A stretch of 38,174 bases of DNA, taken from the IMG/VR virus record IMGVR_UViG_3300044591_000931, positions 1 through 38,174 of that record. One strand, written 5' to 3'. Source of the DNA: a virus (taxonomy: Duplodnaviria > Caudoviricetes). The notes under the pieces were generated by a model. It was not told the origin of the DNA. It made no database searches and saw only the letters and a list, made by a program, of their open reading frames with translations. The position numbers were made by a program, and so were the translations under genes. Below, one piece after another: positions 12,426 through 32,090 of this stretch (its first letter is position 1; every line of letters begins with the position of its first letter).

Positions 12426-13634
12426 ATGGCAAATACAATAAATGTTTACCTAACAACGGTGTCAAATACGTTCAATCAGTGGCGTATCAACGACAACCTC
12501 ATGGCAAACGACGTGAACGAAATTTGTCGCGGCGACTTCGTCAAGCCTTTTGGCAACGTTGTCATCTCAGAGGGTTACGTTCGCATCGCTAACTCTGCTG
12601 GCGGTGTTATTCTTGACGTCAAAGACGATACGAATATCGATGGAACACTTACTGTCCATAACATAGAAGTAGACAATTCTACAAATCATGTTTATGTTGA
12701 CTGCGGTGATATTGAATTTAGAAGAATGGGCGAAACAGATCTATTCACAGTAAATACAAACACTGCATTCTATGGATCTAACATCACCTTCTCAAACGTT
12801 TCGCATGGTATCATAAACGTCAACGTTGTGAAAGTGTCAATCAATGCTGGTATTGTAAACATTGCAAATACAGAACAGTCCGCAACGCTAAACATTCACC
12901 CAAATACGTTTATCTTTGCAAATGTAAATGTTACTGGAACGTTGAACGTAACAAATAACGTATTTGCATATAATCTAAACGTTGCAAGTAATACATCAAC
13001 AGGTAATCTAATTGTTCGTAATCTTGCGAACATTGCTAATGCAAATATCATCAATGCGTATATTCGCACGTTGACTGTTGAAGACCCTATTCTTGCCCCA
13101 GCAGTGACCGATAGCGACAAATATGTTCTTCGATTCACTTCTTCTTCAGGTGGTGATGGATACTTCCGTGTTCGTCGCGGTCAAAGTGTTGGAACAGCAA
13201 ATGCTGATCTCCACTGGCATGAATCAGATGGTGCTTGGAAAATTGAATACAATAATCTTCCAGCCAACGTTGTCATGGGTAACGTCACTGCAAACTTCAA
13301 GGCAACTAAAGACTTTATCTCTTCAAGCACAGTATCAGGTGCAGTGAGCGTAGACTTGAGTTCATCAAATTGGTTCAAGTATACTCTCAATGGACCAACG
13401 ACGTTTACGTTTACCAATGCACCATCTAACGGTCTTGCAGTGACGTTCTCGCTTATTATCATCCAAGATGGAACTGGCGGAAGAACCTATACCTTTGCCA
13501 ATACTGTTTATTGGTCTGGTGGCGCAATTCCTCCAAAAACTACAGGATCAAGTAGTAAAGATCTTTGGACATTCACATCGTATGACGGCGGCTCAACGTA
13601 TGTTGGTACATTGGCAGTAAAAGACTTCAGATAA
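12426..13634 (+). CDS. Tail fibre / fibre carrier protein with an Asn/Val-rich beta shaft and a C-terminal adaptor domain
   Basis: N-terminal 'NTFNQWRINDN' fibre-anchor-like motif and beta-rich shaft. Its C-terminal ~100 aa are clearly paralogous to the C-terminus of 24226..30306. Confidence 0.7.
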   Translation: MANTINVYLTTVSNTFNQWRINDNLMANDVNEICRGDFVKPFGNVVISEGYVRIANSAGGVILDVKDDTNIDGTLTVHNIEVDNSTNHVYVDCGDIEFRRMGETDLFTVNTNTAFYGSNITFSNVSHGIINVNVVKVSINAGIVNIANTEQSATLNIHPNTFIFANVNVTGTLNVTNNVFAYNLNVASNTSTGNLIVRNLANIANANIINAYIRTLTVEDPILAPAVTDSDKYVLRFTSSSGGDGYFRVRRGQSVGTANADLHWHESDGAWKIEYNNLPANVVMGNVTANFKATKDFISSSTVSGAVSVDLSSSNWFKYTLNGPTTFTFTNAPSNGLAVTFSLIIIQDGTGGRTYTFANTVYWSGGAIPPKTTGSSSKDLWTFTSYDGGSTYVGTLAVKDFR

Positions 13635-13640
13635 GATACA

Positions 13641-15917
13641 ATGCCAAAACGTATTGATGAATTAGAAAAAACATGGACGGCAACTCGTGGGTCGACTGTG
13701 TTCAACACATATGGAAATATGTTTGTTCCATATGGAAGAAATCGTCTTTACGTTTCAGGTCGCGGTGGATCTGGTAACTGTCTAGTTCCTGGTAATATTG
13801 CAACTTATACAGGCAACAGCGCGGCATCATATAACTCTGGTGTTGCTGCAACATACAATCCAGGTTTTACTGCTTCCTATACTGGTAACAATGCCAATTA
13901 CAATTTTGGCAACCCAGCATCGTATACTGGAAATACTGAAATTCCAGCCAGCGGTGGTAATAACGCAATCTATAATCCTTGTGGCACTGGCTTCAATCCT
14001 GCAGTCATTGTGGGGTATAACTCAGGAAGCACAGGCGGCGCACAATACAATGCTGGCAACATCACAGGTTACAACACAACAAACATTGCTGGTTATAATA
14101 CTGGTGTTGGTACAAGTTATAACGCTGCAACTCCTGGCGGTTATAATACAAGAAACATTAGCGGATACAATGCTGGTAGTGCAACATATACCACAGGCAA
14201 CCCAGCAACATATGTTGGTGGCTCGAACAATATCACTGCCTATTCTGGCAATAGCGCAAACTATAATACTGGTAATCCTGCAACCTATAATGCAGGAAAT
14301 GTTGTAACAGTTCCAACTAATATATTTGGTGGAATGTCGCCAGTATATAATCCAGGTGGAATTGCAAACTACAATCCATCAACAGTAAATTGGTATGGTG
14401 TTATCGTTGAAACTTTCTTCGATGAAGGTTACTTTTATTATCAACAAATAGCATTTGAAGGAACAGGAACATCAGTTGGTTGCCCAACTGAATTTACAGC
14501 AGAAGCAGTCACGCCAAGCAACTTCCCAAACTTTCCTGGGTTTGTTGTTGGTGGTGGGCAAATGGTCTACTTCTATAATATATACTATGAGTGTTCTCCA
14601 GCAACGCCTGGAACTGCCAATTATAATCCAGGAACACTAGTTTATAATCCTGGAAACCCAGCATCATATAATGCAACAAATATTTCTGGATATAATCCAG
14701 GCTCAGCAAGTGCTTACAACGTCGGAACACCATCAACTTATAGCGGCAATTTTATCGGTGGATATACTGGTAATAATGCAAACTATAATACAGGTAATCC
14801 TTCAGGATTCACTGCTGGTAATGCAATCACTTATACTGATAATAATGCAAATTATAATCAAGGAAATGCAGTTTACAACGCTGGTAATATAAACAGCTTT
14901 GTTGGCAACTCAGCAGTCTTCACTCCAGGAAATCCATTTACTGATTGTTCGTTTGCAACAATCAATGGTTATAATCCTCCAGGCGCATCAACACCGAATT
15001 ACAATACAGGCAATCCAGCATCATTCACGCCAACTACTATTGGTGGCTTCAATGTGGGTAATGCTGTTTATAATGAGGGGGTTGGTGACTATAACACTGG
15101 AAACCCAGCAAGTTTTACTGGAAACTTCGCAGCAACGTTCAATGCTCCAGGAGAGCAGTTGTATAATACAGGAAATATTGCATCATATACTGGTAACACT
15201 GGAACAGGTGCGTATAATCCAGGTTCAATCGCAAACTATGTTGCAGGAAATATCTCCAGTTATACAGAAGGAAATCCAGCAAGTTATAGCGGAAATAATA
15301 TTTCTGGATATAATGCTGCTAACAATGCTAACTTTAGTCCTGGAGCTGCCACATATAATGCAGGTAATGTGGCAACTTATAATGCAGGATTTGCAGCAAC
15401 ATATAATGAACCAACAATTTCTGGTTATAACGCTCCAGCACCAAGTGGTGGTGGCGGTGGTGGATGTTGCTTCGCTGGTGACACGCTCATTGCAATGGCT
15501 GACGGTTCAACCAAGACCATTGAGACTATTCAAGTTGGAGATGAAATTTTATCTTACAATCCAGAAACAGGTCAGCACGAGACGAATGAAGTTTCAGAAA
15601 TCATTACTCGTGTGAATAGAGTCATGTTTGAGTATATCTTGGAAAATAGCGTTGCAATCAGAGCATCTGATGACCACCCATTCTTCGTTATCGGAAAGGG
15701 TTATGCTTCTATGAATCCAAATTTGACAATGCAAGGATATAGATCTTTGGAGGAAGTTGCGCAAGTTCAAGTTGGAGATAGTTTTGTAGACAAGAATGGT
15801 AATGCTATACGCATCAACGCAATTGTCTCAATCAACTATCCATATACAGTCTATACATTCAATAATAAGTATAAGTCTAGCCCAAATTTCTATGCTAATG
15901 GGGTTCTAACTTACTAA
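13641..15917 (+). CDS. YN-repeat fibre protein, N-terminal half, with a C-terminal Hint domain
   Basis: N-cap 'FVPYGRNRLYVSGRGGSGN' shared with 19049..21649; 7-8 aa repeats such as 'NPATYNAG'; ends in a Hint domain. Confidence 0.75.
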   Translation: MPKRIDELEKTWTATRGSTVFNTYGNMFVPYGRNRLYVSGRGGSGNCLVPGNIATYTGNSAASYNSGVAATYNPGFTASYTGNNANYNFGNPASYTGNTEIPASGGNNAIYNPCGTGFNPAVIVGYNSGSTGGAQYNAGNITGYNTTNIAGYNTGVGTSYNAATPGGYNTRNISGYNAGSATYTTGNPATYVGGSNNITAYSGNSANYNTGNPATYNAGNVVTVPTNIFGGMSPVYNPGGIANYNPSTVNWYGVIVETFFDEGYFYYQQIAFEGTGTSVGCPTEFTAEAVTPSNFPNFPGFVVGGGQMVYFYNIYYECSPATPGTANYNPGTLVYNPGNPASYNATNISGYNPGSASAYNVGTPSTYSGNFIGGYTGNNANYNTGNPSGFTAGNAITYTDNNANYNQGNAVYNAGNINSFVGNSAVFTPGNPFTDCSFATINGYNPPGASTPNYNTGNPASFTPTTIGGFNVGNAVYNEGVGDYNTGNPASFTGNFAATFNAPGEQLYNTGNIASYTGNTGTGAYNPGSIANYVAGNISSYTEGNPASYSGNNISGYNAANNANFSPGAATYNAGNVATYNAGFAATYNEPTISGYNAPAPSGGGGGGCCFAGDTLIAMADGSTKTIETIQVGDEILSYNPETGQHETNEVSEIITRVNRVMFEYILENSVAIRASDDHPFFVIGKGYASMNPNLTMQGYRSLEEVAQVQVGDSFVDKNGNAIRINAIVSINYPYTVYTFNNKYKSSPNFYANGVLTY
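15468..15914 (+). other. Hint (intein-like) autoprocessing domain, no endonuclease, lacking the terminal His-Asn
   Basis: Block A 'CFAGDTLIAMADGSTKTIETIQVGDEILSY', block B 'ASDDHPFF', block F/G 'VYTF...NFYANGVLTY*'. Confidence 0.88.
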
Positions 15918-17437
15918 TGTCTACTGAAATCTACTCACCAGGAAATCCTGCAACATACAATCCAAGCACTGGTGGAAACCTTTCAGGCTATAATACAGGT
16001 GTAGCATCATATACTGGCAATTTCATGACATACAATCCACCGTCAGGTGGTGGATTGGTTTATTGGAGCGCAACATTTTTTGTCAATGATAATGGATTTG
16101 CTCAAGTTTTTGAAGAAGATCCTGTTCAAATTGGATTTCAATATTATCCTCAATTATTGACAACGCCAACGCTGCCAAGCCCAACTACTGCTTATGGTAA
16201 TCCAGGAGCAGGTCCACATGCGGCTATTGGACTAAACATTTACATAACATATACCGCATTAGAGGGTGGTCCGCCGACACCAGGTAATTGGACTGGTGAT
16301 TATAATGCAGGATCTCTTGCAGGTTATAACGATAACACAGCAACTTACAATCCAGTATTGTCAGGTGGAAATCCTGCAACGTACAATCCACCAACAATCA
16401 CAGGCTATAATCCACCAGCATTTACACCAGGAAACGCAAACTATACGCCAGGAAACGTTGCGACATTCAATCCAACAAATATCGCAACTTATAATCCAGT
16501 AAATATTTCTGGTTATAACGAGCCAACAATCTCAGGATATAATCCTGCTGGTGGTGGTGTAAGTTGGGTTGGAACAACATACTATTCATTGGACTTGGTG
16601 AGTGGCGGTAACATTGGTTCTGGCTCTTTCACGACCAGCGGAAATAGCGCAAACTGCCCAACACCAACTAGTTTCTATGGTCCAATGCCAGGAACTCCTG
16701 AAGTTATTGAGTACAATATAACAAACTACGATTGCACTCCTCTACCAAGCGGCAGCGCTAATTATAATACTGGTGCTCCAGCAAGTTACATAGGAAACGT
16801 TGCGCTTTATAATCCTCCTTCAGTAGGAAATTATTCTGGTAATAGTGTAAATTACAATCCAGGTGTTGCTTCAACATATACTGGAAACTTCTCTGCAGGA
16901 TTTGCTGCAGGTGGTAACGTTGCATCATACAACACTGGTAATCCTGGAACATATAATCCAACAAATATTGGTGGATATTCTGGAAATACATTGGCTGGAT
17001 ACACAGGTAACAACGCAGGATATAATACAGGAAGCCCAGCATCTTATACTGGTAACAACATTGCTGGATACAACGCTGCACCACCTCCATCATATAATGT
17101 TGGAAATCCAGCGTCTTATACTTCTAACTTCGTTTCTGGTTACAATTCTGGTAATCCAGCAACGTATGTTGGCAACAATATCGCTTCATACTCTGGTAAC
17201 TTTGTCGCAACTTATAATCCTGGAAGCGCAAGCACGTATAACTTCCCAATCCCAGGAACTCCAGGAGAACCTGGATATGCGTTTGGTGTATACTTCCCAG
17301 GTGGTGGCGTTTGTGCTCCAGGCGTTTACGTCAATGAGCAAGAAGTCAGCTACTACTTTGAGAACCAAGAGATTGATTATCGCGATCACCCAATTGAAGT
17401 TCCTGCAGGTGGACAAATAGTTGTAAGAATCGAATAA
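15917..17437 (+). CDS. YN-repeat fibre protein, C-terminal half
   Basis: Start overlaps the upstream stop (TAATG). Same repeats. C-cap 'GVYFPGG...EVPAGGQIVVRIE' shared with 19049..21649. Confidence 0.75.
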   Translation: MSTEIYSPGNPATYNPSTGGNLSGYNTGVASYTGNFMTYNPPSGGGLVYWSATFFVNDNGFAQVFEEDPVQIGFQYYPQLLTTPTLPSPTTAYGNPGAGPHAAIGLNIYITYTALEGGPPTPGNWTGDYNAGSLAGYNDNTATYNPVLSGGNPATYNPPTITGYNPPAFTPGNANYTPGNVATFNPTNIATYNPVNISGYNEPTISGYNPAGGGVSWVGTTYYSLDLVSGGNIGSGSFTTSGNSANCPTPTSFYGPMPGTPEVIEYNITNYDCTPLPSGSANYNTGAPASYIGNVALYNPPSVGNYSGNSVNYNPGVASTYTGNFSAGFAAGGNVASYNTGNPGTYNPTNIGGYSGNTLAGYTGNNAGYNTGSPASYTGNNIAGYNAAPPPSYNVGNPASYTSNFVSGYNSGNPATYVGNNIASYSGNFVATYNPGSASTYNFPIPGTPGEPGYAFGVYFPGGGVCAPGVYVNEQEVSYYFENQEIDYRDHPIEVPAGGQIVVRIE

Positions 17438-17449: not shown

Positions 17450-17476
17450 AGTTGATCATGTAAAGTGGAGTTCGTT

Positions 17477-18040
17477 ATGCCTCAAGTTATCAAATATAAT
17501 CGTGTTCTATCCAAATTCGCTGTCATATCGGACTTCTTGACACAAGAAGAAGTTGATGCTGTGACTTCTTTAGAAAAGAAACTAATGTTTTCTAAAGACC
17601 AGATAAATGGCAAGAATAAAGCAGACATCGCGATTCTCCCGCCAAATCAAGACACTCAGTGGCTTTTTGATAAGTTTTCTGCGTTGGTTGGTCGAATCAA
17701 TATCGATTTCTTCATGTACGATATTGATGGGTTTGATGCATTCGCATATACCAAATATAAGAAAGGGCAAGAATGTGGTTGGCATTACGATGTCGACTTT
17801 GCATTTCTAAATTGGGAACGTAAAATCTCGGCATCAATTATGCTCACAGACCCAGAAGAATATTTGGGCGGTGAGATTGAGATCATGGGCACGGGTGATC
17901 CTGGAGAAGTGATGCCAATCAAACCAAATTTGGGCAGCATAGTTTTCCATGCTCCATGGATGCCATCACGAATCACAACAGTCACTTCTGGAACGCGCAA
18001 GTCGTTGAACGTGTGGGTGATGGGAAAGAGAGGTTGCTAA
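17477..18040 (+). CDS. 2OG-Fe(II) oxygenase (prolyl-hydroxylase/PKHD-like), distal His replaced by Ser
   Basis: 'WHYD', 'RKISASIMLTDPEEYLGGE', 'MPSRITTVTSGTRKSLNVWVMG'. GGAG precedes ATG 17477. Confidence 0.85.
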   Translation: MPQVIKYNRVLSKFAVISDFLTQEEVDAVTSLEKKLMFSKDQINGKNKADIAILPPNQDTQWLFDKFSALVGRINIDFFMYDIDGFDAFAYTKYKKGQECGWHYDVDFAFLNWERKISASIMLTDPEEYLGGEIEIMGTGDPGEVMPIKPNLGSIVFHAPWMPSRITTVTSGTRKSLNVWVMGKRGC

Positions 18041-19002
18041 TGAAAATTTTTGTCAGTATTGTCTCGTACAGAGACCCACTTCTCCACCAAACTCTACGCA
18101 ATATGATGGAGATGCAATCTCAACTGACAAAAGTGACCTATGGCGTATTTGAACAAACTGACTACCCAGATAGTCTAGAGGCGAAGTATCCAGATCTTGC
18201 TCAAAATAAAAACGTTCGCTATAAAAGAATTGATGCCAAATATTCAGACGGAGTCGGTTGGGCAAGACATCTGAATTCAATTCAACTTGACGATGAAGAG
18301 TTCTATTATCAAGTCGACTCTCATATGCTATTTGATAAGAATTGGGATCGTTATTTGATCAATGATTTCAAACTTGGAATGCAGCAGCATCAAACCGATA
18401 GAATTATCATCGATGCAAATTGCGGCTCATTCAGAATGCAAGACGACGGTACTCCATTTATTGATCGTCATGGAAGCATTACAGTAAAGGCTGGATATTG
18501 GTCTTTCCACGATAACTATATTCTTGGTGCTCACGGCGAGTTTCGAGAGGCGACTAAAGATTTCTTACACCCAACAATTCACCTATTTGCTGGAAACTTT
18601 TTCACACATAGCGATTGGCTAAGAAATGTCGGAATGAATCCTCGCATCTTCTTTGAGGGTGAGGAGCAGTATATGACTCTTGCGTCTATCGCTGCAGGAT
18701 ATAAACTCTGCGCACCTACGCAGATTCATTGCTATCATCTAATCGACACGCATCGATATATCACGAAACAAGATGTAAGCCAAGTTGTTTCTCATGAACA
18801 ATTGCAGAGAAATAAAGAAAAGTCGAAGAAAGAATTTCGTATTTTCTTAGATAGTTTCAGCGATGATTTCTTCGAAGAATATCGAAAATACTCTGGCGTC
18901 GACTACATCAATCGAAAACTTGAGAATAGAGCCATCTCGAGAAGTATTCTTTTGCCTCCAGATGTCGTGAATGACTGGGAAATCCCCGACCGATACGATT
19001 GA
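18040..19002 (+). CDS. GlcNAc-transferase family glycosyltransferase (GT60 / Skp1-hydroxyproline GlcNAc transferase Gnt1-like)
   Basis: 'IFVSIVSYRDP', 'GVGWARH', 'EEFYYQVDSHMLFDKNWD', 'FEGEE'. Start is coupled to the oxygenase stop by TAATG. Confidence 0.8.
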   Translation: MKIFVSIVSYRDPLLHQTLRNMMEMQSQLTKVTYGVFEQTDYPDSLEAKYPDLAQNKNVRYKRIDAKYSDGVGWARHLNSIQLDDEEFYYQVDSHMLFDKNWDRYLINDFKLGMQQHQTDRIIIDANCGSFRMQDDGTPFIDRHGSITVKAGYWSFHDNYILGAHGEFREATKDFLHPTIHLFAGNFFTHSDWLRNVGMNPRIFFEGEEQYMTLASIAAGYKLCAPTQIHCYHLIDTHRYITKQDVSQVVSHEQLQRNKEKSKKEFRIFLDSFSDDFFEEYRKYSGVDYINRKLENRAISRSILLPPDVVNDWEIPDRYD

Positions 19003-19048: not shown

Positions 19049-21649
19049 ATGCCCTTACACACAGACCTGTTGAAAAGCTGGATCGGTTCGGCATTTCGAA
19101 ACACAACCACTTTCAATAATACATCCAGCATAACGATTCCATATGGTCGTTTCAATGCTTCAGTTTCTGGACGCGCAGGCACAGGTAATAATGCGACTCC
19201 AGGAAACATTGCCACATACACTGGGAACAGTGCATCAACCTACAACTCGGGTAGTCCAGCGACGTATAACGCAGGGACAACGGCTTCCTATTCTGGAAAT
19301 AACGCTGCGACATATAACGCTGGCAATCCTGCGTCTTACAACCCTCCAGTCCCAGCGTCGTATACAGGTAATAGCGCCAACTATAATGCAGGCAATCCAG
19401 CCTCGTATAGTGGAAATAACACCGCATCATATACTGGAAACAACGCGAACTACAACGCAGGAAGTGCGGCTTCGTATAGCGGAAATAATATAGCATCTTA
19501 CAATCCACGCAACGTTTCTGGATATAATACGGGCAATATTGCTTCTTACAATCCAACGAACATTGCTGGCTACTCTGGCAACAGTGCCAACTATAACGCA
19601 GGAACTCCTGCGACATATAATCCAAGAAACGTAGCAGCATATAACTCTGGTAGTGCGACGTACAATACTGGAAGCCCAGCATCATATACTGGTAACAATC
19701 TAGCAGCGTATAATCCTGGTTCTCCCAACTATAATACTGGAAGCCCAGCATCATACACACCTACTAATATTTCTGGATACTCTGGTAACAGTGCGAACTA
19801 TAATGCTGGTAATGCCGCATCATATAATCCAAGAAACGTAGCAGCATATAATCCAGGCTCAGCAAACTATAACGTAGGAACTGCAGCCAGTTATAATCCT
19901 GGAGCGATTGCATCCTATAACCCAAGAAATATCGCAGGATATTCTGGCAATAACGCCAACTATAATCCAGGCACTGTTGCATCATACAATCCAAGAAACA
20001 TCGCTGGTTATTCTGGTAATAACGCAAACTTCACTCCTGGAAATATTGCATCATACAATCCAAGAAACATCGCTGGTTATTCTGGTAATAACGCAAACTT
20101 CACTCCTGGAAATATTGCATCATACAATCCACAAAACATCGCTGGATATTCTGGCAATACACAAAATTTGAATGCTCCAACTGAATCAAATTGGTCAGCT
20201 GGTATGTATTTTAGTAATACTGGATACCTCATGATTGGTGAATATGAGGAAATGTACAACAATGCGAATGGATATGAAGTGTTCCCTTATTTTGGTACTG
20301 GCACAACTTTGGACACTGGAAATCGTGTTTTCAACACCACGGCTGGTCCAGTTAGTGTTACTGGATTTTCTCCAAATTTTGGAGGCGGCACACTAACTGT
20401 TGATTTCACCAATTTCCCAGGATCACCAGGAAATCCAACAGGTGTATACAATCCAGGTTCAGCAAACTACAACTCTGGAAACGCAGCAACGTATAATTCT
20501 CCATCAGTAGCTGGCTATAATCCAGGTTCAGCAAACTACAACTCTGGAAACGCAGCAACGTATAATTCTCCATCAGTAGCTGGCTATAATCCAGGCTCAG
20601 CAAATTATAATGCAGGAAATATTGCATCATACAATCCGCGAAACATCGCAGCCTATAATGCTGGATCTGCGAACTACAATGCTGGCACAGCAGCATCTTA
20701 TTCTGGCAATAATATCGCATCATATAACCCACGAAACATCGCTGGATATTCTGGTAACAGTGCCAACTACAATACAGGTAATATTGCGTCTTACAATCCA
20801 AGAAACGTAGCTGCATATAATCCTGGTTCGGCGAATTACAATACTGGATCACCTGCTTCTTATTCTGGCAATAATATCGCAGCGTACACTGGAAATAATG
20901 CTAATTATAATACAGGTAGCCCAGCAAGTTACACACCAACAAATATTTCTGGTTATGTTGGAAATAATGCAAACTACAATGCTGGAACGCCAGCCACGTA
21001 CAATCCACGAAACGTAGCAGCATACAATCCAGGTTCAGCAAATTACAATGTTGGTTCCGCTGCCACATATACTGGTAATAATGTTGCAGGATATAACGCA
21101 GGAACCGCAGCAACATATAATCCTGGAAGCATTGCTTCGTATTCTGGTAACACTCTTGCTAATTATAACGCTGGTAATCCTGCGACATATAATCCAGGAA
21201 ATCCTGCAACTTATACAGGCAACACCATTGCCAATTATAATGCTGGCAATCCAGCAAGTTATAATCCGCCAGTTCCAGCAACATACACTGGTAATAACGT
21301 AGCATCATACAATGCAGGAAATCCTGCAACATATAATCCAAGAAATCCAGCATCATATACAGGCAATACTGCAGCAACATATAACGTTGGTAATGTTGCG
21401 TCATATAATTCTCCAGTTCTTGGCACTTCTGGCGCACCAACAAATGTTCTTGGTGTATATTTCCCAGGCGGCGATGGAGCAACTGCCAATTATAATGCAG
21501 GACCAGCAAATACAATTTCTGGATATAACGCAGGTCAATTAGCACCATATGTGCCACCAACTGCAATAGACACAAATGTATATCCCGATTCAGCCAACTA
21601 TCCAGTCGTTGTGCCAACAGGTGGTCAAATAGTTGTAAAGATCGACTAA
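19049..21649 (+). CDS. YN-repeat fibre protein, unsplit paralog (N-cap, repeat arm, central domain, repeat arm, C-cap)
   Basis: N-cap 'ITIPYGRFNASVSGRAGTGN', C-cap 'GVYFPGG...VVVPTGGQIVVKID', long YN repeat arms and a unique central segment at ~20170-20440. Confidence 0.75.
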   Translation: MPLHTDLLKSWIGSAFRNTTTFNNTSSITIPYGRFNASVSGRAGTGNNATPGNIATYTGNSASTYNSGSPATYNAGTTASYSGNNAATYNAGNPASYNPPVPASYTGNSANYNAGNPASYSGNNTASYTGNNANYNAGSAASYSGNNIASYNPRNVSGYNTGNIASYNPTNIAGYSGNSANYNAGTPATYNPRNVAAYNSGSATYNTGSPASYTGNNLAAYNPGSPNYNTGSPASYTPTNISGYSGNSANYNAGNAASYNPRNVAAYNPGSANYNVGTAASYNPGAIASYNPRNIAGYSGNNANYNPGTVASYNPRNIAGYSGNNANFTPGNIASYNPRNIAGYSGNNANFTPGNIASYNPQNIAGYSGNTQNLNAPTESNWSAGMYFSNTGYLMIGEYEEMYNNANGYEVFPYFGTGTTLDTGNRVFNTTAGPVSVTGFSPNFGGGTLTVDFTNFPGSPGNPTGVYNPGSANYNSGNAATYNSPSVAGYNPGSANYNSGNAATYNSPSVAGYNPGSANYNAGNIASYNPRNIAAYNAGSANYNAGTAASYSGNNIASYNPRNIAGYSGNSANYNTGNIASYNPRNVAAYNPGSANYNTGSPASYSGNNIAAYTGNNANYNTGSPASYTPTNISGYVGNNANYNAGTPATYNPRNVAAYNPGSANYNVGSAATYTGNNVAGYNAGTAATYNPGSIASYSGNTLANYNAGNPATYNPGNPATYTGNTIANYNAGNPASYNPPVPATYTGNNVASYNAGNPATYNPRNPASYTGNTAATYNVGNVASYNSPVLGTSGAPTNVLGVYFPGGDGATANYNAGPANTISGYNAGQLAPYVPPTAIDTNVYPDSANYPVVVPTGGQIVVKID
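19977..20131 (+). repeat. Exact 69-bp (23-aa) tandem repeat, about 2.2 copies
   Basis: 'atcatacaatcca...' recurs at 19981, 20050 and 20119; unit IASYNPRNIAGYSGNNANFTPGN. Confidence 0.9.
20450..20595 (+). repeat. Exact 69-bp (23-aa) tandem repeat, about 2.1 copies
   Basis: 'aatccagg' recurs at 20450, 20519 and 20588; unit NPGSANYNSGNAATYNSPSVAGY. Confidence 0.9.
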
Positions 21650-21690: not shown

Positions 21691-22290
21691 ATGCCATTCA
21701 AAGTGCAAAAATACGCTAAGACATTACAACAGTACTGCGTAGCATCAAACGTTTTTACTGAAGAAGAATGTGACAAGATTGTTGATCTTGAAGACTTGCA
21801 AAAGTTTCAAAGAGGTGCTGTCGGCGGTGGCGCTGGTGGCGCAGTAAACAAAAAAGCTCGCGACAGTGATATCATGTGGATCATGCATGATCAAAACTCA
21901 GATTGGATCTTTCAAAAATTTGGTGCTCTTCTTTCGCAAGTAAATAACGACCATTTCATGTATAACATCGATGGTTTTGATAATTTTCAATACACAGTAT
22001 ACAAAGCAAAGAACAAACAACATTATGATTGGCACATGGATATGGATACCACTAGTGCCAATTATATTCGCAAGATTAGCGCATCAGTTCTGCTCACCGA
22101 TCCAGATGACTATCAAGGTGGTGAATTTCAATTAGTGCCTCATGGTCGAGTTGACAATCCAATTATTATGAAACCCAAACGCGGAGATGTTATCTTCTTT
22201 TCTTCGTTCATGCCACATCGCGTTGCTCCAGTGACTTCTGGTGTTCGTAAATCATTAGTATGTTGGGTCATGGGTGAGAGGACTAATTGA
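21691..22290 (+). CDS. 2OG-Fe(II) oxygenase (prolyl-hydroxylase/PKHD-like), intact HxD...H triad
   Basis: 'WHMD', 'RKISASVLLTDPDDYQGGEF', 'FMPHRVAPVTSGVRKSLVCWVMG'. Confidence 0.9.
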   Translation: MPFKVQKYAKTLQQYCVASNVFTEEECDKIVDLEDLQKFQRGAVGGGAGGAVNKKARDSDIMWIMHDQNSDWIFQKFGALLSQVNNDHFMYNIDGFDNFQYTVYKAKNKQHYDWHMDMDTTSANYIRKISASVLLTDPDDYQGGEFQLVPHGRVDNPIIMKPKRGDVIFFSSFMPHRVAPVTSGVRKSLVCWVMGERTN

Positions 22291-22291
22291 T

Positions 22292-23038
22292 ATGAAAAAT
22301 TGGCTCAAGTTCTGGGGCAATGATGTAATGGAATTCTATTGCCATCCAGATTTCGATGGCGTGATTCCAGAACCTCGCCCTGCTGTGAAGTATCTTCCCA
22401 AATGGTTCAAAGATCTTGCGCCAACATTCGACGCAGGCAAGCGCGACGTTTTCGGCAATCCAACCATGACAGCAAAGAAGTGTTTACCGATGCTTGATGC
22501 TATGTCTCTTGGATTTACAATTCCTCTTGCTGGTGATCTTCATGTAACTACGAATCACAACTGCACTCAAATCGAAATTATAAATCCACCTGGAATTGTT
22601 GTTGCTGAATTCCATGATGCTGGTCAAGTCGGTGGTAAAGCAGCGATGGGCGTCAAGCACGGTAATCCCGTGAAGTTCATCAATCGTTGGGTCATCAAAA
22701 CAAAACCAGGTTGGTCAACGTTGTTTATTCCACCAATGAATCATTTCGATCAGCCATTCCGCTGCCTTGCTGGATATGTTGATACTGATGCATATCCGAA
22801 AGAAGTAAACTTTCCTGCGGCTTGGCTTGTGCCTGATTTCGACGGAAGTCTGCCAGCAGGAACTCCTTTGGTGACTGCAATTCCAGTCAAACGTGGCTCA
22901 TTCAATAATCGTAAACCAAAAGTTCGTTCAATGACTTCGGGTGAGAAGAAGCATATTGAAAAGATTCAAAAGGCTCAGCATACAAGAACTCATCACTATA
23001 CTTGGGAATTGAGAAAGAGAAAACATGAAGATGAATAA
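22292..23038 (+). CDS. Conserved hypothetical phage protein, DUF6065-like (possible dUTPase-like fold)
   Basis: 'PKWFK', 'KKCLPMLDAMSLGFTIP', 'IKTKPGWSTLF', 'GYVDTD', 'GTPLVTAIP'. ATG 22292 directly follows the upstream stop. Confidence 0.65.
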   Translation: MKNWLKFWGNDVMEFYCHPDFDGVIPEPRPAVKYLPKWFKDLAPTFDAGKRDVFGNPTMTAKKCLPMLDAMSLGFTIPLAGDLHVTTNHNCTQIEIINPPGIVVAEFHDAGQVGGKAAMGVKHGNPVKFINRWVIKTKPGWSTLFIPPMNHFDQPFRCLAGYVDTDAYPKEVNFPAAWLVPDFDGSLPAGTPLVTAIPVKRGSFNNRKPKVRSMTSGEKKHIEKIQKAQHTRTHHYTWELRKRKHEDE

Positions 23039-23831
23039 ATTATTCAATTTCTTTTCAAAAGAAACTCCTGATTTAGAATTTGTTGATTCAAGTCGACAGG
23101 TTTACACTCACTATCCAATTCTTCTTGCGAAAGACGTAAAACCGTTCTTCAAAGAGTTTCAGGAAAAAGACCAGGGCAGTTATAACTTTCCAGGATGTCC
23201 TGGAATGCACGATTATTCACGAATGGGTTATTTGATCACTGCATGGGTTGACATTCATGTCAAAGCAAACAAAGCAGGCACTGCAATTCGTTATGGTACA
23301 TCTTTAGCAGATAAGGCAGCAAAGCCAAAGCCTCATCCATTTGAGAATCCAATTCAAATAAATCCACCAGAACTTCCACTGAAAGAACCATTTCCAATGT
23401 CAACAGATGTGACAAATGGTCTGTTTACATTCGGTGATGATATCAAACCAACAGCATTCAATATGCCAGGTCCATGGAAGATCTTCGGAAAGAAAAACGT
23501 TTCTGCGTTATTGCTCCCTGCTTTCTATCATTGTCCATATCTTGAAGATTTATATCTTTATCCTGGGGTTGTGGATTATAGAGAGTTTACGACTGCCAAT
23601 GTAATTTTCTCACCAAAGAGAAGGATAGATCTCACGATCCCTGCAGGAACCCCTCTCCTTCAGGTGATTCCATTCAAGACGACTGATGACTTTTCTGCCT
23701 CATTTGGTCCAGGAACGGTCGAGCAATTAGATTCCCATAAAAGTCCTAAAAAATTCTACGAAGGGAACTGGTATCGTAAGTATTATATGATCAAGAAGAA
23801 GTTCAAACTGGAGAAATATACAGGAGATTGA
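23025..23831 (+). CDS. Conserved hypothetical phage protein, paralog of 22292..23038
   Basis: 'CPGMHDYSRMGYLI', 'PGVVDY', 'IPAGTPLLQVIPF'. An alternative start at 23031 is possible. Confidence 0.65.
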   Translation: MKMNKLFNFFSKETPDLEFVDSSRQVYTHYPILLAKDVKPFFKEFQEKDQGSYNFPGCPGMHDYSRMGYLITAWVDIHVKANKAGTAIRYGTSLADKAAKPKPHPFENPIQINPPELPLKEPFPMSTDVTNGLFTFGDDIKPTAFNMPGPWKIFGKKNVSALLLPAFYHCPYLEDLYLYPGVVDYREFTTANVIFSPKRRIDLTIPAGTPLLQVIPFKTTDDFSASFGPGTVEQLDSHKSPKKFYEGNWYRKYYMIKKKFKLEKYTGD

Positions 23832-24225: not shown

Positions 24226-27200
24226 ATGTCAGCGAATGTCAGCACGGCTATTGGCCAGACAATCAAAGTTTCAACTCAGAAACCAGTTGTAAAAGTTTCA
24301 ACTGGTCGTGGCGCAGGTGGACCAGCAGGTCCACAAGGTCCACAGGGTCCGTCAGGTCCTCAGGGTTCGCTCGGTCCTACAGGTCCTTCTGGCGGTCCAC
24401 AAGGTCCATCTGGTCCTGCGGGTCCTCAAGGTCCGCAGGGCAGTTTAGGACCACAAGGTCCTCAAGGTGTTTCTGGTCCATCAGGTCCTAGTGGTCCTGT
24501 TGGTGCGCGTGGTCCAACTGGTCCAGTTGGTGCTCAGGGTATTGCTGGTCCGTCTGGTCCTTCTGGACCAAGTGGCGTATCTGGTCCGCGTGGTCCTCAA
24601 GGTGTTGCTGGTGCTCAAGGTCCATCTGGTCCTTCAGGTCCGTCTGGTGCTCAAGGTATTCAAGGTCAAGCAGGTCCACAAGGTCCACAAGGTGTTTCTG
24701 GTCCACGTGGTGTTGCTGGTCCTCAAGGTCCATCTGGTGCTCAAGGTATTGCTGGTCCTCAGGGTCCAGAAGGTCCATCAGGCGCACAAGGTCTTCAAGG
24801 TTTTGCTGGACCACAAGGTCCGTCAGGTCCACGTGGTTTAGTTGGCGCAGCAGGTCCGCAAGGTCCAATTGGTCCATCAGGCGCAGTTGGTGACGAAGGT
24901 CCGACAGGTCCTACTGGTCCAAGCGGTGCTCGTGGTCCTCAAGGTCCAGCTGGTGCAACTGGTGCTGTTGGTCCTACTGGTCCAAGCGGTCCTTCAGGTG
25001 CGCAAGGTCTTCAAGGTGATGCTGGTCCTTCTGGCGCAACAGGTCCGCGTGGTGTTGCTGGTCCTCAGGGTCCATCTGGCGTTGCTGGTCCTCAAGGTGC
25101 TCAAGGTGATATTGGTCCGCAAGGTCCATCTGGTCCTCGAGGCTTTGCTGGTCCTCAAGGTCCATCAGGTCCACAAGGTTTAGTTGGTGCTGCTGGTCCA
25201 TCTGGTCCGCAAGGTCCAACAGGTCCGTCAGGTATTCAGGGTGTTGCTGGTCCACGTGGTCCGCAAGGTGTTGCTGGTCCAACTGGTCCTCAAGGCGCAA
25301 GTGGTGCACTACAACACTGGTCAGTTCACTCATTAGATTACACAGCAGTTGATGGTGATCGTATTGTAGCAAATACAACCGTCAATGGTCCATTCACAAT
25401 CACACTACCAAATACGCCAGTTGTTGGTGGATATGTTCAAGTCACTGATGGTGATGATTGGACTGCAAATAATCTTTTTGTTCGCTCATTAGACAATACG
25501 ATTGAAGGTAGCGATCAAATTGTAAGACTTGATCTCAAAGGCGTTACCGTTGAATTCATTTATAATGGTATGACTTGGGAAGTCACTGCTACAACAGGTC
25601 GTCGTGGTCCACAAGGCTCGCGTGGACCAACAGGTCCACAAGGACCACAAGGCGTCAAAGGTGATCGCGGTTTCTCAGGACCACAAGGTCCACAAGGACC
25701 AAGTGGTGCTCAAGGCGCAATTGGTCCGCAAGGTCCATCAGGTCCATCAGGTGCTCAAGGTATTCCTGGTGCTGGCATTCGTCTTGTCGGCACAGTACCA
25801 ACTTATGCAATTCTAATCAATTCAATCACTGACCAAACTGCAGGTGATGCATATATTGTCATCGCAGATGGTCACTTATATGTTTGGGATGATTGTCCAC
25901 ATCCAGCTGTTTGGGTTGATGCTGGTCCATTTATTGGTCCACAGGGTCCACAGGGCGTCACTGGTCCTCAAGGTCCACAAGGACCACAAGGTGTGTTTGG
26001 ACCACAAGGACCACAAGGTCCACAGGGTGTTGCGGGTCCACAAGGACCTCAGGGTCCACAAGGACCACAAGGACCACAGGGTGTTCCTGGTGGTGGCATC
26101 AATGTGCTTGGTACTGTAATCAATGTTGTTGATTTGCCAGGTACAGCAAATGATGCTGACGCTTATGTTGTAACAAGCATTGGACATCTTTATGTCTACA
26201 ATGACGATCTTGTACAATGGGTTGATGCTGGTCTAATTGTTGGACCACAAGGTCCTCAAGGACCACAGGGTCCACAGGGCGTCTTTGGTCCACAAGGTCC
26301 TCAGGGTCCACAAGGACCTCAAGGTGCTCAAGGTGAAACTGGACCACAGGGTCCACAAGGTGTGACTGGTGAAGTTGGTCCACAGGGTCCATCTGGTCCA
26401 CAAGGTGCTATTGGTGCACGCGGTCCACAAGGTCCTCAAGGACCAATGGGTCCATCAGGACCAATTGGCTTACAAGGTGCTTATGGTGGAATTAGTTTTG
26501 CTTATGAATTCAATGATGCAATTACAAGCACTGATCCAGGCGTTGGTAAACTCAAGTTCAATAATTCTATACCAACATTAGCAACAAAAGTTTATATTGA
26601 TAACGTTGATGCTGATGGATCAAACATTCTAACATTCTTGACTGCATTTGATGATAGTACAAGCGCAATCAAAGGCTACTTGAAAGTCTTTGATAAAACA
26701 AATGCTGGAACATTTGAACTTTATAACGTCATTGACCTCACAGATCGTACAGGATATTATGAACTTGATGTAACTCATATCACTGGCTCTACAAGTTCAT
26801 TTGCCAACGACCAAGAGATTTTAGTTTCTTTTGGCAGAACTGGTGATAAAGGTCCACAAGGACCACAAGGTATTGTTGGTCCACAAGGACCAAGCGGCGT
26901 TGAAGGTCCACAAGGTCCATCTGGTGCAGCAGGACCACAAGGACCACAAGGTCCACAAGGCGTTGGGGGTCCACAGGGTCCGCAGGGTGTCGATGGTCCG
27001 ACTGGTCCACAGGGACCACAGGGTCCACAAGGTGAAGCGTCAACAGTTCCTGGTCCTCAAGGTCCACAAGGTGTTGTTGGACCAACTGGTCCACAAGGAC
27101 CGCAAGGTGCTCAAGGACCACAAGGTCCAGCTGGTGCTGCAGGTCCACAAGGTCCACAAGGACCAACTGGACCACAAGGTTCAATTGGCTCAACTGGTGA

Positions 27201-30200
27201 ATTGGGTCCGCAAGGTCCAACTGGTCCTGTTGCTGGTTCTGATAAGCAAATCATCTATAACAGCACTGGTACTGCAGTTGGTTGCACAGATCTAACTTTT
27301 GACTCAACATCAAGACTTCTCAGCACACATAACGTAAACGTCAATAGTTTGAATGTTGCTGCTGGTGATAACGGTGGTATTAGATTCCCTAACGATGCGT
27401 TTGGTGGCGGTAGTGATACTGCAACAATCAAGTTATTGAATCCTCTTGGCGGTGAAGCGACAGAATTGACGATCACTTTGACTAATGATGCTGATGATAG
27501 AGTCAATTTCAATCTTGTCAGCAACAATGGTTTGATGGTCAATCGCAACACTGTATGGCATGCTGGCAATGACGGTTCTCTATCGACTCTTGACGCTGAC
27601 TTACTTGACGGACAACAACTAGCAAACATTGCTCCAGTTGGTCTTGAAGGTCAAGTGTCATTCTTGGCAAACACATCAACCTTTGCAAGAGAAAATGATT
27701 TCACTCTCGTCAAGGGCTACTTTATTGAAACAAATGGTGAATTGAGTGCTGCTCAAAATACATTGACAGATTATTCAACGATCTTCAATACTTGGACAAG
27801 ATTCTCTCACGACGGAACTTCAAATCAGCCAGCCAATGCAGGTGAGTTGAACGCATGGTCGTTTGATGCAAATACGGGCGTTATCACGAGCACCACGAAT
27901 AGTGGTACGTTTATTGGATTTGTTTCACCAGAGTCTTTTGCTAATTATACAATCAAGGCTCAGCTCAAATCAACAAATGCTGATAATGATACAATTGGTA
28001 TTCTTATTGGCTGGTATGTTGATCCAATTACTGGTCGTGAACATACTTTGTCAGCCTTGCGCGACACTGGTGGTACAATCACTGGTTGGGAAATTTGGTA
28101 CAACTATCTCAGATCAGATGCAGTAAAACTAGTTGATGGTTCTGCAACTGTAACATTTACTGGTGGTTGGTCGGATTATCCAGACGGTGTGACTATTCAA
28201 GCAGTTCGCACTGGCAATCAATTTACACTCACCACAACGCAACTTGGTAACACCACTCTTGATAGTGCAACAACGCTATCACTAGATTTGGACAGCAATC
28301 CAATTCTTGATAAGTTCAAGGGTCAAAGCCCATATGGATTTGGTGTATACTCTCAAGCAAGTTCAACATTCACCGTATTGAACTTTACTTCTGATACAAA
28401 TGATATTTTTGACATCAGAAACGGTGACTTGTATACACTAAACAACGGTTCATGGATCATCAGTGGTGATAGAGATATTTGGTCTGAAATTGGCATCGGT
28501 CGTTTCGTTCATAACGAATCAACTGGTAAGACATATTATGTCGCCAATTCATCAGCAGTTATCAAAGTTGCTGTGAACTCTGGTCCAACAGGTCCATCTG
28601 GTCCTCAAGGCGTAACAGGTCCACAGGGTCCACAGGGTCCACAAGGACCACAAGGTCCGCAAGGTGCACAAGGTCCTCAAGGTGTTGTTGGTCCACAAGG
28701 ACCGCAGGGTCCACAGGGCGTAGATGGTCCTCAAGGTCCGCAAGGTCCTCAAGGTGTTGTTGGTCCTCAAGGTCCACAAGGTGTGTTTGGTCCGCAAGGT
28801 CCACAAGGACCAGAGGGTCCACAGGGTCCACAGGGCGTCTTTGGTCCACAAGGACCTCAAGGACCTCAAGGACCTCAAGGTCCACAAGGTGTCGTCGGTC
28901 CACAAGGTCCTCAAGGTCCACAGGGACCGAAGGGTGATACTGGTGACTTTGGTGGTGCAACGTTTGAATATATCTTCAATACCAATACAGCAAATACTGA
29001 TCCAACAGCTGGCTATGTCAAGTTCAATAATACAACATTGCTATCTGCGACTGAGATGTATATTGATAACATCGATCGTTTAAGTGGAAATGTTTTCAAT
29101 TACTTGAATACAATTGATGACTCAACATCAACAATCAAAGGCACGTTCAAGATTGCAAATTCTGCAAATGTTCTAGAATACACATTCTTCAATATTAACG
29201 GTACTCATCTTCATGTTGCTGATTGGTTCGTTGTTCCTGTTGCAGGATTGAACTCAACATTAACTGGCTCGAACTTCTCAAATAGCACAAATGTGATTAT
29301 GACATTTGTTCGCACTGGTGATAAAGGCGACACAGGTCCTCAAGGTCCACAGGGTGTCTTTGGACCACAAGGACCACAAGGACCAAGTGGTGCAAGCGTT
29401 ACTGGTCCACAGGGTCCACAGGGTGTAATTGGTCCACAAGGTCCTCAAGGACCAGAAGGTCCACAGGGTCCGCAGGGTGTGATTGGTCCACAGGGTCCGC
29501 AAGGTCCGCAAGGTCCGCAAGGTCCGCAAGGTGTTGTTGGTCCACAAGGTCCTCAAGGTCCGCAAGGTGTTGTTGGTCCACAAGGTCCTCAAGGACCACA
29601 AGGTGATGCATCAACCGTTCCTGGACCACAAGGACCACAAGGACCAAGTGGTGCAAGCGTTACTGGTCCTCAAGGTCCTCAAGGTGTTGCTGGTCCACAA
29701 GGACCAGAAGGATCAACTGGTCCTCAAGGTCCGCAAGGTGTTACTGGTCCTCAAGGTCCGCAGGGTGTAATTGGTCCACAAGGACCAACTGGACCAATCG
29801 GTGGATCAAATACGCAAGTGTTCTTCAATGATAATGGAAGCACTGCTGGATCAGCAAATCTAACATTCAATCTAAATGGTAATGTATTCAGTGTTGGCTC
29901 GTCAACTCTTGTTGCTAATGTTTCAAATAATTCTGTAACAGTAAGCGGCAATTTGACAGCAACGTTGAAGTCAAGTAAAGACTTCATGGTAGTAAATACA
30001 TCAACGACAACTGCTAACACTGTAGATTTGTCAAATTCAAACTACTTCCGTCATACAATGATAGGCAATACAACGTTTACATTTGTGAATGCTCCAAATT
30101 CTGGAACTGCGCAAATGTTCTCACTACTATTGCTCAATGATGGTGTTGGTGGTCGTTTCCCAACATTTGCGAATACAATTTACTGGGCTGGTGGTGCAAT

Positions 30201-30306
30201 TCCTCCCGCAACAACTGCAGCAAATGCTCGTGACTTATGGACGTTTATCACCTATGATGGTGGTACAACGTACTGGGGAACGTTGACTATGAAGGACGCT
30301 AAATAG
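24226..30306 (+). CDS. Large collagen-like tail fibre / appendage with interspersed globular domains
   Basis: Several long Gly-X-Y tracts (GPQ, GPS, GPT), a gp34-like domain, duplicated internal domains, the 'LDADLLDG' fibre motif, a lectin-like domain and a C-terminal adaptor domain. Confidence 0.85.
30298..30305 (+). promoter_or_regulatory. Possible late-promoter variant GCTAAATA overlapping the fibre stop codon
   Basis: The CTAAATA core also occurs at 19014, 21646 and 33387, each time at a gene boundary. Confidence 0.4.
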
Positions 30307-30333: not shown

Positions 30334-31335
30334 ATGAAAGTACATGTTCTTGTAAACCCACGCAATCCTACTGGGTTGATGAATCGCGTTGACCCATTTG
30401 CGGTCCACGGCTACAAATACATCAAGCATCTCTCACCACATTTCCAAATGATTCATTATGGAATTCCTGGTGCACAAGTAGATTGCGAGCACGTAGACAT
30501 TCCAACAACACCAACAGAAATTCGCAAGTTCAATGAACTTGCTGGCGATGAAATTCAAAAACGCGCATCTGACGGTGATCTAATTGTTTGTTTCTTTGGT
30601 GTGGACAATCAGCTGGCTTGTGAGAAAAACAAAAATTGTAAGCCAGTAGAACCATCAATTGGGTATCGCGCCAATGGTATCTTTGCTCCTTATAGAGCGT
30701 TCACATCATATGCGAATATGCATATGTTCTATGGCGAGCGTGGGATGTTGATGAGCCCGAGCTGGTTCGATGCAGTGATTCCAAATCCATTTACAATTGA
30801 AGAATTTGAATATGATGATCAGAAGGAGGATTACTATCTCTACTTCGGTCGTGTCTGTGAAGAAAAGGGTCTTCATCTTGCTATTCAAGCAACAGAAAAA
30901 CTTGGCAAGAAACTGATTGTTGCTGGTCCTGGATCATTACAAACATTGGGCTATACTAAGATTCCAGATCACGTTGAAGTCTTTGGTGTTGCGAACGCAG
31001 AACAACGCAAACAGCTGATGAAAAAAGCCAAAGGCTTGTTGGGATTGACATATTATGTTGAGCCGTTTGGCAATATGATCATTGAAGCAAATTTATCTGG
31101 CACTCCTGTGATCACAACTGATTGGGGCGCATTTCCAGAAATCGTAGAAGAGAATGTCACAGGATATCGCATTCGTAGTTTTAGTGAACTCATGGCTGCT
31201 TTGAGAAATATTGAAGCAAATAAGATCAATTCATTCGATTGCCGCGAGCATGGCTTGCAGTTCTCAGATGAAAACGTGCATGAACTTCATCGCAAGTATC
31301 TACTCAAAGTAGCATCAAATAATTTCTATGAATAG
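30334..31335 (+). CDS. Glycosyltransferase, GT4 / group 1 (GT-B fold)
   Basis: 'YLYFGRVCEEKGLHLAI' and the E-x7-E motif 'EPFGNMIIEANLSGTPVITTDWGAFPEIV'. Confidence 0.92.
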   Translation: MKVHVLVNPRNPTGLMNRVDPFAVHGYKYIKHLSPHFQMIHYGIPGAQVDCEHVDIPTTPTEIRKFNELAGDEIQKRASDGDLIVCFFGVDNQLACEKNKNCKPVEPSIGYRANGIFAPYRAFTSYANMHMFYGERGMLMSPSWFDAVIPNPFTIEEFEYDDQKEDYYLYFGRVCEEKGLHLAIQATEKLGKKLIVAGPGSLQTLGYTKIPDHVEVFGVANAEQRKQLMKKAKGLLGLTYYVEPFGNMIIEANLSGTPVITTDWGAFPEIVEENVTGYRIRSFSELMAALRNIEANKINSFDCREHGLQFSDENVHELHRKYLLKVASNNFYE

Positions 31336-32080
31336 TGTTTTTGTCGTAACATCTTCGATTCAGCCAAGAGAAGGTCGCTTCACATATAGCGAGAAGCGAA
31401 CCATTTTTCCAGCTGATGAGAGATTTAGGCAAACTATTTTCACAATCAATTCAATTAGCGCGACGTTTCCGAAATCGAAGATTATTATAATTGATTCTTC
31501 TGATAACTATAAAGAATATATCTCAACGTTTATGCATTTCAGAAACGTAGAGTTTATTCCCCTAAAAGAAATTGCTCCGCAGTGCTTTGAACTTGTAAAC
31601 ACGCATCAGAATAAAAGTCTATGCGAAAGCGTTCTGTTGAACATTATCTACAAGAACTATAAAGATAAACTAAAACAATACGACTTTATTTTCAAAGCAA
31701 CTGGTAGATATTTCTACTATAACTTTACTGATGAATTATTGACTCCAGAAAACAAAGATAAGATTTTCTTCAAGAAACCGCTCAACTTTGAATGGAATGA
31801 TTCTTGGCGATATTCATTCATAGATCGAAGAGCATTACAAAACAATAATCGCCTGCATCAGTACTGTACCGTTCTCTATGGCTTCGGAGCAGAACACCTA
31901 GATAAATTTATAGACATCAACGAGGCTACGATACATTTGGTAAAACAACCGCCGATGTATCACTATGATATCGAGACGCTATCATATTATCTCACAAGAC
32001 AATATCAAGACAAACTCATTGAAGTTGATTGGAAGGTTTCAGGGTGGGATGGAACTTCTGGACGATTTATGTTTTACTAA
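31328..32080 (+). CDS. Hypothetical protein, probably glycosyltransferase-like (GT-A-like N-terminus)
   Basis: 'VFVVTSSI...RFRQTIFTINSI...IIIIDSS' and 'IFKATGRY'; overlaps the GT4 stop. Confidence 0.5.
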   Translation: MNSVFVVTSSIQPREGRFTYSEKRTIFPADERFRQTIFTINSISATFPKSKIIIIDSSDNYKEYISTFMHFRNVEFIPLKEIAPQCFELVNTHQNKSLCESVLLNIIYKNYKDKLKQYDFIFKATGRYFYYNFTDELLTPENKDKIFFKKPLNFEWNDSWRYSFIDRRALQNNNRLHQYCTVLYGFGAEHLDKFIDINEATIHLVKQPPMYHYDIETLSYYLTRQYQDKLIEVDWKVSGWDGTSGRFMFY

Positions 32081-32090
32081 AGGTGCAATC

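Follow-up and report, generated by a model that had tools for sequence, protein, structure and literature searches.

We find that the two repeat arms of an 866-residue phage protein almost certainly pair with each other in an antiparallel manner. Because the units of the two arms match in mirror order and are gained and lost jointly among orthologs, the chain very likely runs out from a base and back to it. The case for an apparently undescribed repeat stalk, built on a nested topology that is already known, is well supported. We found no published description of this repeat-stalk family, and as our coverage of the literature was incomplete this is weak evidence of absence. Judging by its gene content, the source of the protein is an uncultured T4-like phage, with the gene in its tail region. 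The window analysed here, a stretch of 38,174 nucleotides, is a linear virus record (38 kb, about 21% complete) that contains T4-like baseplate wedge, neck and sheath-stabiliser genes together with collagen-like fibres (Pfam, PHROG), and its neck protein has at most 39% identity to cyanophage proteins. The open reading frame has no match in Pfam or PHROG, and its relatives gave low-complexity matches only in these two collections. We divide the protein as follows.

19049-21649, plus strand: whole hairpin-fibre gene, 866 residues, an open reading frame with 14 full-length orthologs including its own product.
19049-19219, plus strand: N-cap, residues 1-57, with the LxKSW motif and the first strands of the predicted split base domain, delimited by family-wide conservation.
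19220-20149, plus strand: outgoing arm, residues 58-367, 310 residues in 40 Tyr- or Phe-ended units of 7 or 8 residues.
20150-20449, plus strand: closing 7-residue unit and variable tip domain, residues 368-467, 100 residues together.
20450-21406, plus strand: returning arm, residues 468-786, 319 residues in 41 units, complementary to the outgoing arm.
21407-21649, plus strand: C-cap, residues 787-866 (80 residues), predicted to complete the base beta-sandwich.

The units were defined by cutting the protein after each Tyr or Phe. Read outward from the centre, the lengths of 7 or 8 residues are identical between the arms over 30 consecutive units, a run that includes a shared 8-8-8 break in the 7-8-8 rhythm, and they agree in 38 of 40 pairs of the mirror register. 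The longest run of matching lengths in the shifted mirror registers is 14; in direct order the best register matches 22 units in a row, with only 22 units overlapping. Facing units also complement each other in composition. In 39 of the 40 pairs, Gly occupies position 3 of one partner and not of the other, the single exception being a PPV/PPV pair; among 7-residue partners SGN-type units stand opposite NPG-type units, and among 8-residue partners NxG-type units stand opposite units of the NPRN, SGNN or TPTN type. By the same Gly-3 score the best shifted mirror register reaches 32/38 and the best parallel register 25/35, and shuffling the 7-residue types within the protein gave p = 0.022. The rule extends to 13 orthologs (L017 was left out), where it holds in 102/102 pairs of 7-residue units, 351/363 pairs of 8-residue units and 25/25 mixed pairs, counts that do not represent independent events because the orthologs are related. 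The 12 exceptional 8-8 pairs have Gly-3 on neither side, which matches one PPV/PPV pair per protein.

The mirror order had first been proposed in an earlier note on this DNA, from distinctive motifs that recur around the centre: PPVP at 19343 and 21266, GTPATY at 19601 and 20984, TGSPASY at 19667 and 20912 as well as 19736 and 20843, and GTAASY at 19877 and 20684. All of these positions are exact, and the midpoints of the pairs do fall at 20280-20305. The proposal stands for the register of the units, but only the PPV units are truly opposite each other; the GTPATY, TGSPASY and GTAASY pairs are offset by one or two units from facing, and the TGSPASY triplets, which had been read as mirrored, follow each other in direct order between the arms. 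The offset of these three motifs arises because units opposite each other are complementary without being identical, and we have therefore replaced pairing by identity with complementarity of facing units. An inverted duplication of DNA can be ruled out as the origin of the mirror, as we found no inverted repeat in the DNA (self matches on the minus strand of at most 22 nt, E 0.84), and the symmetry thus exists at the level of the protein.

Homologs with arms of equal length, which the same note had suggested looking for, are indeed found. Fourteen distinct full-length orthologs of 760-884 residues were compared, including the 866-residue protein and not counting the partial L007 and L018, and in 13 of them the arms differ by at most one unit, with unit counts from 34/35 to 43/43. 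L001 and the 866-residue protein differ by one 23-residue triplet in each arm, and paired gains or losses of units are seen near the base, in mid-stalk and near the tip. The 14 orthologs show 11 different patterns. The two arms of one protein are compatible in 10 of these, and exchanging arms from one pattern to another gave no compatible pair in 110 combinations; as the phages are related the pattern counts are not independent, though each pattern required matching changes at two sites. The orthologs bear other tips, of 60-100 residues. It is the mirror register, the Gly-3 rule, the balanced orthologs and the failure of all swapped pairs that support the antiparallel arms put forward in the earlier note.

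These observations also bear on whether the arms pair at all. If they were unpaired, either as a parallel solenoid or as disordered linkers, the symmetry would be a by-product of repeat expansion, and both the long stretch of DNA similarity that the arms share in direct orientation (about 75% over 365 nt) and the lack of a confident stalk from AlphaFold would agree with this. We regard this explanation as very improbable and largely refuted, since the DNA holds no inverted repeat, one DNA event cannot alter both arms and spare the tip, every cross pair fails, and the parallel registers score far lower.

The one unbalanced ortholog, L017, has 31 units in the N-arm and 38 in the C-arm as deposited. 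Its C-arm contains two copies of a 46-residue block (125/138 nt alike), and its N-arm a single copy of the complement. We inspected contigs, not reads, from 8 of the 20 listed runs, and no contig spans the whole gene. In the runs from 2018, contigs stop at L017:3770 in three runs and restart at 3865 in three, and depth goes up there. One contig has 14 letters of the end of the block (3865-3878) ahead of its start (3741), a junction that is likely the signature of a head-to-tail 138-nt duplication in the N-arm. A 53-nt match between the arms of L017 could raise the depth but would not put the break at 3770. In a study from 2025, the N-arm region is crossed with one copy in three of four runs, and the C-arm skips the 138-nt duplicate in two of four. 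The imbalance is thus likely an assembly collapse of the 138-nt duplication, a reading based on the contig breaks and one 14-letter overhang. If it is true, the duplication in 2018 and the single copies in 2025 would leave both populations balanced in that segment.

The earlier note further proposed that the N- and C-caps form one base domain, and here the support comes from a confident model of a short relative and not of the 866-residue protein, for which a full-length AlphaFold model with the 14 orthologs has a pLDDT of 33.7 (about 31 in a helix at residues 5-15). In the relative, P0033 (258 residues, modelled with an 80-sequence alignment), both caps have a pLDDT >90, the equivalent of the N-cap included, and the arms are below 50. 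The confident part, residues ~19 to 258, aligns onto single jelly-roll domains, and because both caps align together onto these domains we suggest that the two ends of the chain make one beta-sandwich. The best fold match of this base has Z 6.1 (rmsd 3.7, 85 aligned), and the matches are generic beta-sandwiches of which none stands out. TNF/C1q-type chains match at Z about 4.1-4.5, the Pam3 fibre gp24 (7YPX) at Z 4.6 (rmsd 2.8, 74 aligned) and the TNF-like/Gly-rich region of ALK (7NX3) at Z 4.1 (rmsd 3.5, 74 aligned). Foldseek returned nothing at E 0.001 on the PDB and viral models, the latter giving many weak 'Gly-rich domain' rows at E 0.3-2.6. A profile match to Gly_rich_2 (PF21722) covers 21 columns only (hhalign, E 0.049, probability 1%), and 0/80 family members match PF21722 at E up to 5. 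Shared ancestry with the TNF-like base of Gly-rich fibre domains would be a weak lead only. A collar-fold or gp38 chain is absent among the structural matches listed, which does not exclude these folds.

The family extends well beyond the orthologs. Searching with a profile built from the short relatives yielded 136 proteins (E 1e-5 or better, 120 of them listed); the low rows of one relative search were unrelated low-complexity proteins, and we excluded them from the family. Both caps are present by pattern in 77 of 201 proteins examined. In 71 of the 77, those with a tip of at least 25 residues and an insert of at least 120 residues, the tip is central, at a median of 0.48 of the insert (quartiles 0.46-0.49, 5-95% 0.44-0.57), and the lengths of the arms correlate (r = 0.68). 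The outliers in tip position include two-tip proteins, and five members of 159-193 residues are tipless. Many tips are flanked in sequence by a Cys pair, which would close a loop. Repeat chemistry varies between subfamilies. The tip of the 866-residue protein matches nine other proteins among 271, three of them on a PIANQP-type stalk, and related tips are also found on further stalk chemistries and among paralogs; tips are shuffled between scaffolds. One short member, searched against 50,697 phage records, matched none of them, a PDB sequence search found no relative of the family, and the ESM Atlas held no usable match. Within one of the orthologs, at L017:4282-4474, the 2018 runs contain two tip alleles, with about 15 differences between them, on nearly invariant arms, which suggests a diversifying pressure on the tip.

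A paralog upstream of the 866-residue gene is split in two.

13641-15917, plus strand: first half of the paralog, with N-cap, repeats, tip, repeats and a C-terminal Hint-like domain.
15917-17437, plus strand: second half, with repeats, two tips and C-cap.

The N-cap is found only in the first gene and the C-cap only in the second. Across the two genes, the Gly-3 rule holds for the first 6 base-proximal units in 8/8 loci and then drifts. In each half-cap there is a Cys with no counterpart in the single-chain form, and we therefore suggest an interchain disulfide. Hint domains usually end in His-Asn, and the Hint-like domain (~15460-15917), which follows a poly-Gly linker, ends without it. Middle genes with a Hint-like domain are P0008, P0009, P0013, P0015, P0016 and P0022; L004 and L009 have three genes with Gly/Pro-rich or acidic tails and no Hint domain. 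Ligation of the halves by the Hint domain through an N-terminal Ser is not required, as L004 and L009 manage without the domain and some partner genes start Met-Ala.

That caps can come from different chains, as the split paralog shows to be possible, raises the question of whether the 866-residue protein could form two straight chains paired head to tail with swapped caps, having a base at each end and the tips mid-rod. Such a dimer would satisfy the same length and Gly-3 rules. We find it improbable, given that the tipless members and the two-tip members exist, that the base is closed by a single chain in the P0033 model, and that the Cys pairs flanking many tips would close a loop.

The earlier note had contrasted the arrangement with the usual parallel trimeric phage fibre, and here the out-and-back topology itself turns out to be known already, from the needle of T4 gp37 and from gp38. 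In the published accounts of gp37, stem segments 882-931 and 960-1009 surround a tip at 932-959, inserted in D10, and the needle is a trimer with seven iron sites that doubles back into the collar domain (PMC6957217; PMC12609058). The likeness to D10/D11 lies in the split base, the out-and-back stem and the small distal tip inserted in the stem, and doubling back with a base from flanking segments is found in our family as well, in the register and in the predicted split base of P0033. On the other hand, the gp37 stem, with ~50 residues in each arm, is trimeric, is described there as non-repetitive, is held by HxH-iron sites and terminates a long fibre chain, whereas the 866-residue protein has ~310 residues per arm with a 7/8-residue complementary repeat, lacks HxH iron-binding motifs along the stem, and is encoded by a stand-alone gene.

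Three hairpins could nevertheless assemble as in gp37 into a six-stranded trimeric needle, with arms possibly pairing between chains. The mirror rule fits any antiparallel pairing, and the base resembles jelly-roll folds that often trimerise, such as the TNF/C1q-type chains and Pam3 gp24. We consider a trimer unlikely: there are no HxH metal sites and only one His in the 866 residues, the ~18 residues before the first base strand are too few for a Pam3-type helical bundle, and branched two-tip forms and split-gene forms would be easier to build from single chains. We thus favor a single chain that pairs with itself.

Two further known systems resemble the protein in part. Gp38 of the Straboviridae (S16, T2 and T6 type) is a monomer with an N-terminal helical attachment domain and a middle domain built from both termini; it is a separate protein at the fibre tip, and its variable distal segments are shuffled (PMC12032242). 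Our protein is likewise encoded separately and belongs to a family with shuffled tips, and it would resemble gp38 also in being attached to a fibre and in having one domain made by its two ends. Gp38 differs in having a beta-helix and a compact polyglycine II sandwich, where the 866-residue protein would have a beta-sandwich base (as modelled on the relative), a long two-armed stalk and a folded tip; the arms have 11.8% Gly and there is one GGG run in the whole protein, so a polyglycine II sandwich is lacking. Pam3 gp24 is described as trimeric, combining a TNF-like base with a Gly-rich lattice (PMC9608196). In it, as in ALK and PF21722, extended segments project to the distal side of a small, discontinuous beta-sandwich, a layout that our family may share, going by the weak structural matches, but these have several short Gly-rich loops in a lattice and our protein one very long Tyr/Asn hairpin; by composition and by the lack of PF21722 matches, a lattice of glycine-rich loops is absent. 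The 866-residue protein would work in a similar manner to these, but since it is without one defining feature each of gp37, gp38 and Pam3 gp24, we do not file it as a member of any of these groups.

The genes around the 866-residue gene suggest where the protein may sit and how it may be modified.

12426-13634, plus strand: 402-residue tail fibre, phrog_9017, with a conserved 112-residue C-terminal domain (13296-13631), the putative docking site.
17465-18040, plus strand: 2OG-Fe(II) oxygenase, first copy (PF13640).
17956-19002, plus strand: GT60-like GlcNAc transferase with DSH and GEE motifs (PF11397, E 7.6e-29).
21691-22290, plus strand: 2OG-Fe(II) oxygenase, second copy, with an intact HxD...H motif (PF13640).
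22274-23831, plus strand: two DUF6065/phrog_7084-like genes (Pfam, PHROG).
24226-30306, plus strand: 2026-residue collagen-like fibre, with a second copy of the docking domain at its end (29968-30303).

Among 27 loci, one per distinct contig set, a fibre with the docking domain lies directly 5' of a family gene in 18, another gene does so in three, and six stop short. The window has two docking fibres and two family proteins (one split), and the two counts are equal in 5/6 records, most of which are partial, with the family genes of the other records counted in retrieved loci; G001 has four family genes vs two strong docking fibres. Behind the 2026-residue fibre there is no family gene and a glycosyltransferase gene follows instead, as is also the case in G003 and G005, and the 866-residue protein is therefore left as the likely partner of this fibre. 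We found the 112-residue domain in 289 phage records. In the six cultured phages that we looked at, the proteins encoded behind it vary and include a Gly-rich tail-fibre-family protein and DUF7483. In a Microcystis phage, the protein after the docking fibre has what we take to be a gp38-like look, and a PDB search gave no match for it; nor did a PDB sequence search find a relative of the docking domain. We suggest that tip adhesins in general may dock on this unnamed domain. One docking fibre in a complete 263-kb phage is followed by four family genes in tandem (L040:3869-8780), which have a different N-terminal motif and differ from each other in their tips; they are possibly alternative adhesins.

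All 27 loci also contain a 2OG oxygenase and at least one DUF6065-like gene, and 24 of the 27 a PF11397 transferase. Near their fibre genes, aquatic phages often carry 2OG oxygenases. In the first oxygenase copy of the window and its clade, P-S/A-R replaces P-H-R in 10 of 11 members (one motif was not read), so that the distal His is lacking; going by this motif the copy is likely inactive or altered, and possibly a pseudo-enzyme or chaperone. For the second copy the best PDB match is PKHD/PiuC (E 8e-6), with prolyl 4-hydroxylases at E about 1e-3. Several orthologs of the transferase begin at a Met matching 18040, and a PDB sequence search found no relative of it. PF11397 is the family of Skp1 Gnt1. 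Gnt1, a GT60 enzyme, is described as adding GlcNAc onto hydroxyproline made by a prolyl hydroxylase (PMC6939170). The oxygenase and the transferase of the window might in the same way hydroxylate and GlcNAc-modify prolines, of which the arms have 51, in the stalk or in the collagen fibre, which could equally be the substrate; we put this forward tentatively, and found no report in the literature of GT60-type hydroxyproline glycosylation on a phage virion. The DUF6065-like genes are possibly assembly or modification helpers. A gene cluster 3' of the collagen-like fibre (30334-33385), with GT1-family, GT2-family and DUF6445 genes, contains further candidates for virion glycosylation.

As the family keeps company with a fibre-tip domain, a 2OG oxygenase and a GT60-like transferase, its members are likely fibre-docked adhesins. 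Alternatively, the fold-back stalk could be an appendage that does not bind a receptor, such as a neck or tail hair, a shield or a sensor. The 866-residue gene itself is separated from both docking fibres, and almost uncharged arms (11 charged residues in 629) that are possibly glycosylated would suit a passive coat. We still rate this as distinctly unlikely, since tips differ and have been exchanged on a stalk and base that stay conserved, and since the slot after the docking domain holds varied proteins in the six cultured phages.

With moderate confidence, we favor, as the whole model, one chain that folds into a hairpin and docks as an adhesin on the tip of a fibre. A two-armed antiparallel stalk would be rooted in a small beta-sandwich formed by both ends of the chain, as predicted for the relative, and the swappable tip at its end would likely bind the host. 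Equal length and exactly one Gly-3 in facing units would set the register, so that selection would retain insertions and deletions only when they come in pairs. The reach of the stalk would be up to about 95 nm at about 3 angstrom per residue, or less if it is kinked. The base would dock in the manner of gp38 on the conserved C-terminal domain of a fibre, probably that of the 2026-residue collagen-like fibre, as gene order and gene counts suggest. It is possible, though on balance doubtful, that the family as a whole is an analogue of RNA secondary structure, in which a pairing code would give tipless hairpins, stem-loops of up to ~95 nm, branched multi-tip forms and stems formed in trans from the products of two or three genes, as in the neighbouring paralog with its Hint-like domain and a Cys in either half-cap, followed by phage-encoded proline hydroxylation and O-GlcNAc transfer.

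Phage fibres normally tune their length by adding parallel trimeric modules. Here, the length of the stalk changes by paired edits in two arms, under a rule that can be read from the sequence, and the register and length of a fibre that has escaped modelling therefore become predictable and testable by design. If the protein is indeed a monomeric rod whose length can be adjusted and whose tip can be plugged in, it would be a useful nanoscale scaffold. For the phages themselves, the swappable tips are candidate determinants of host range in uncultured aquatic phages.
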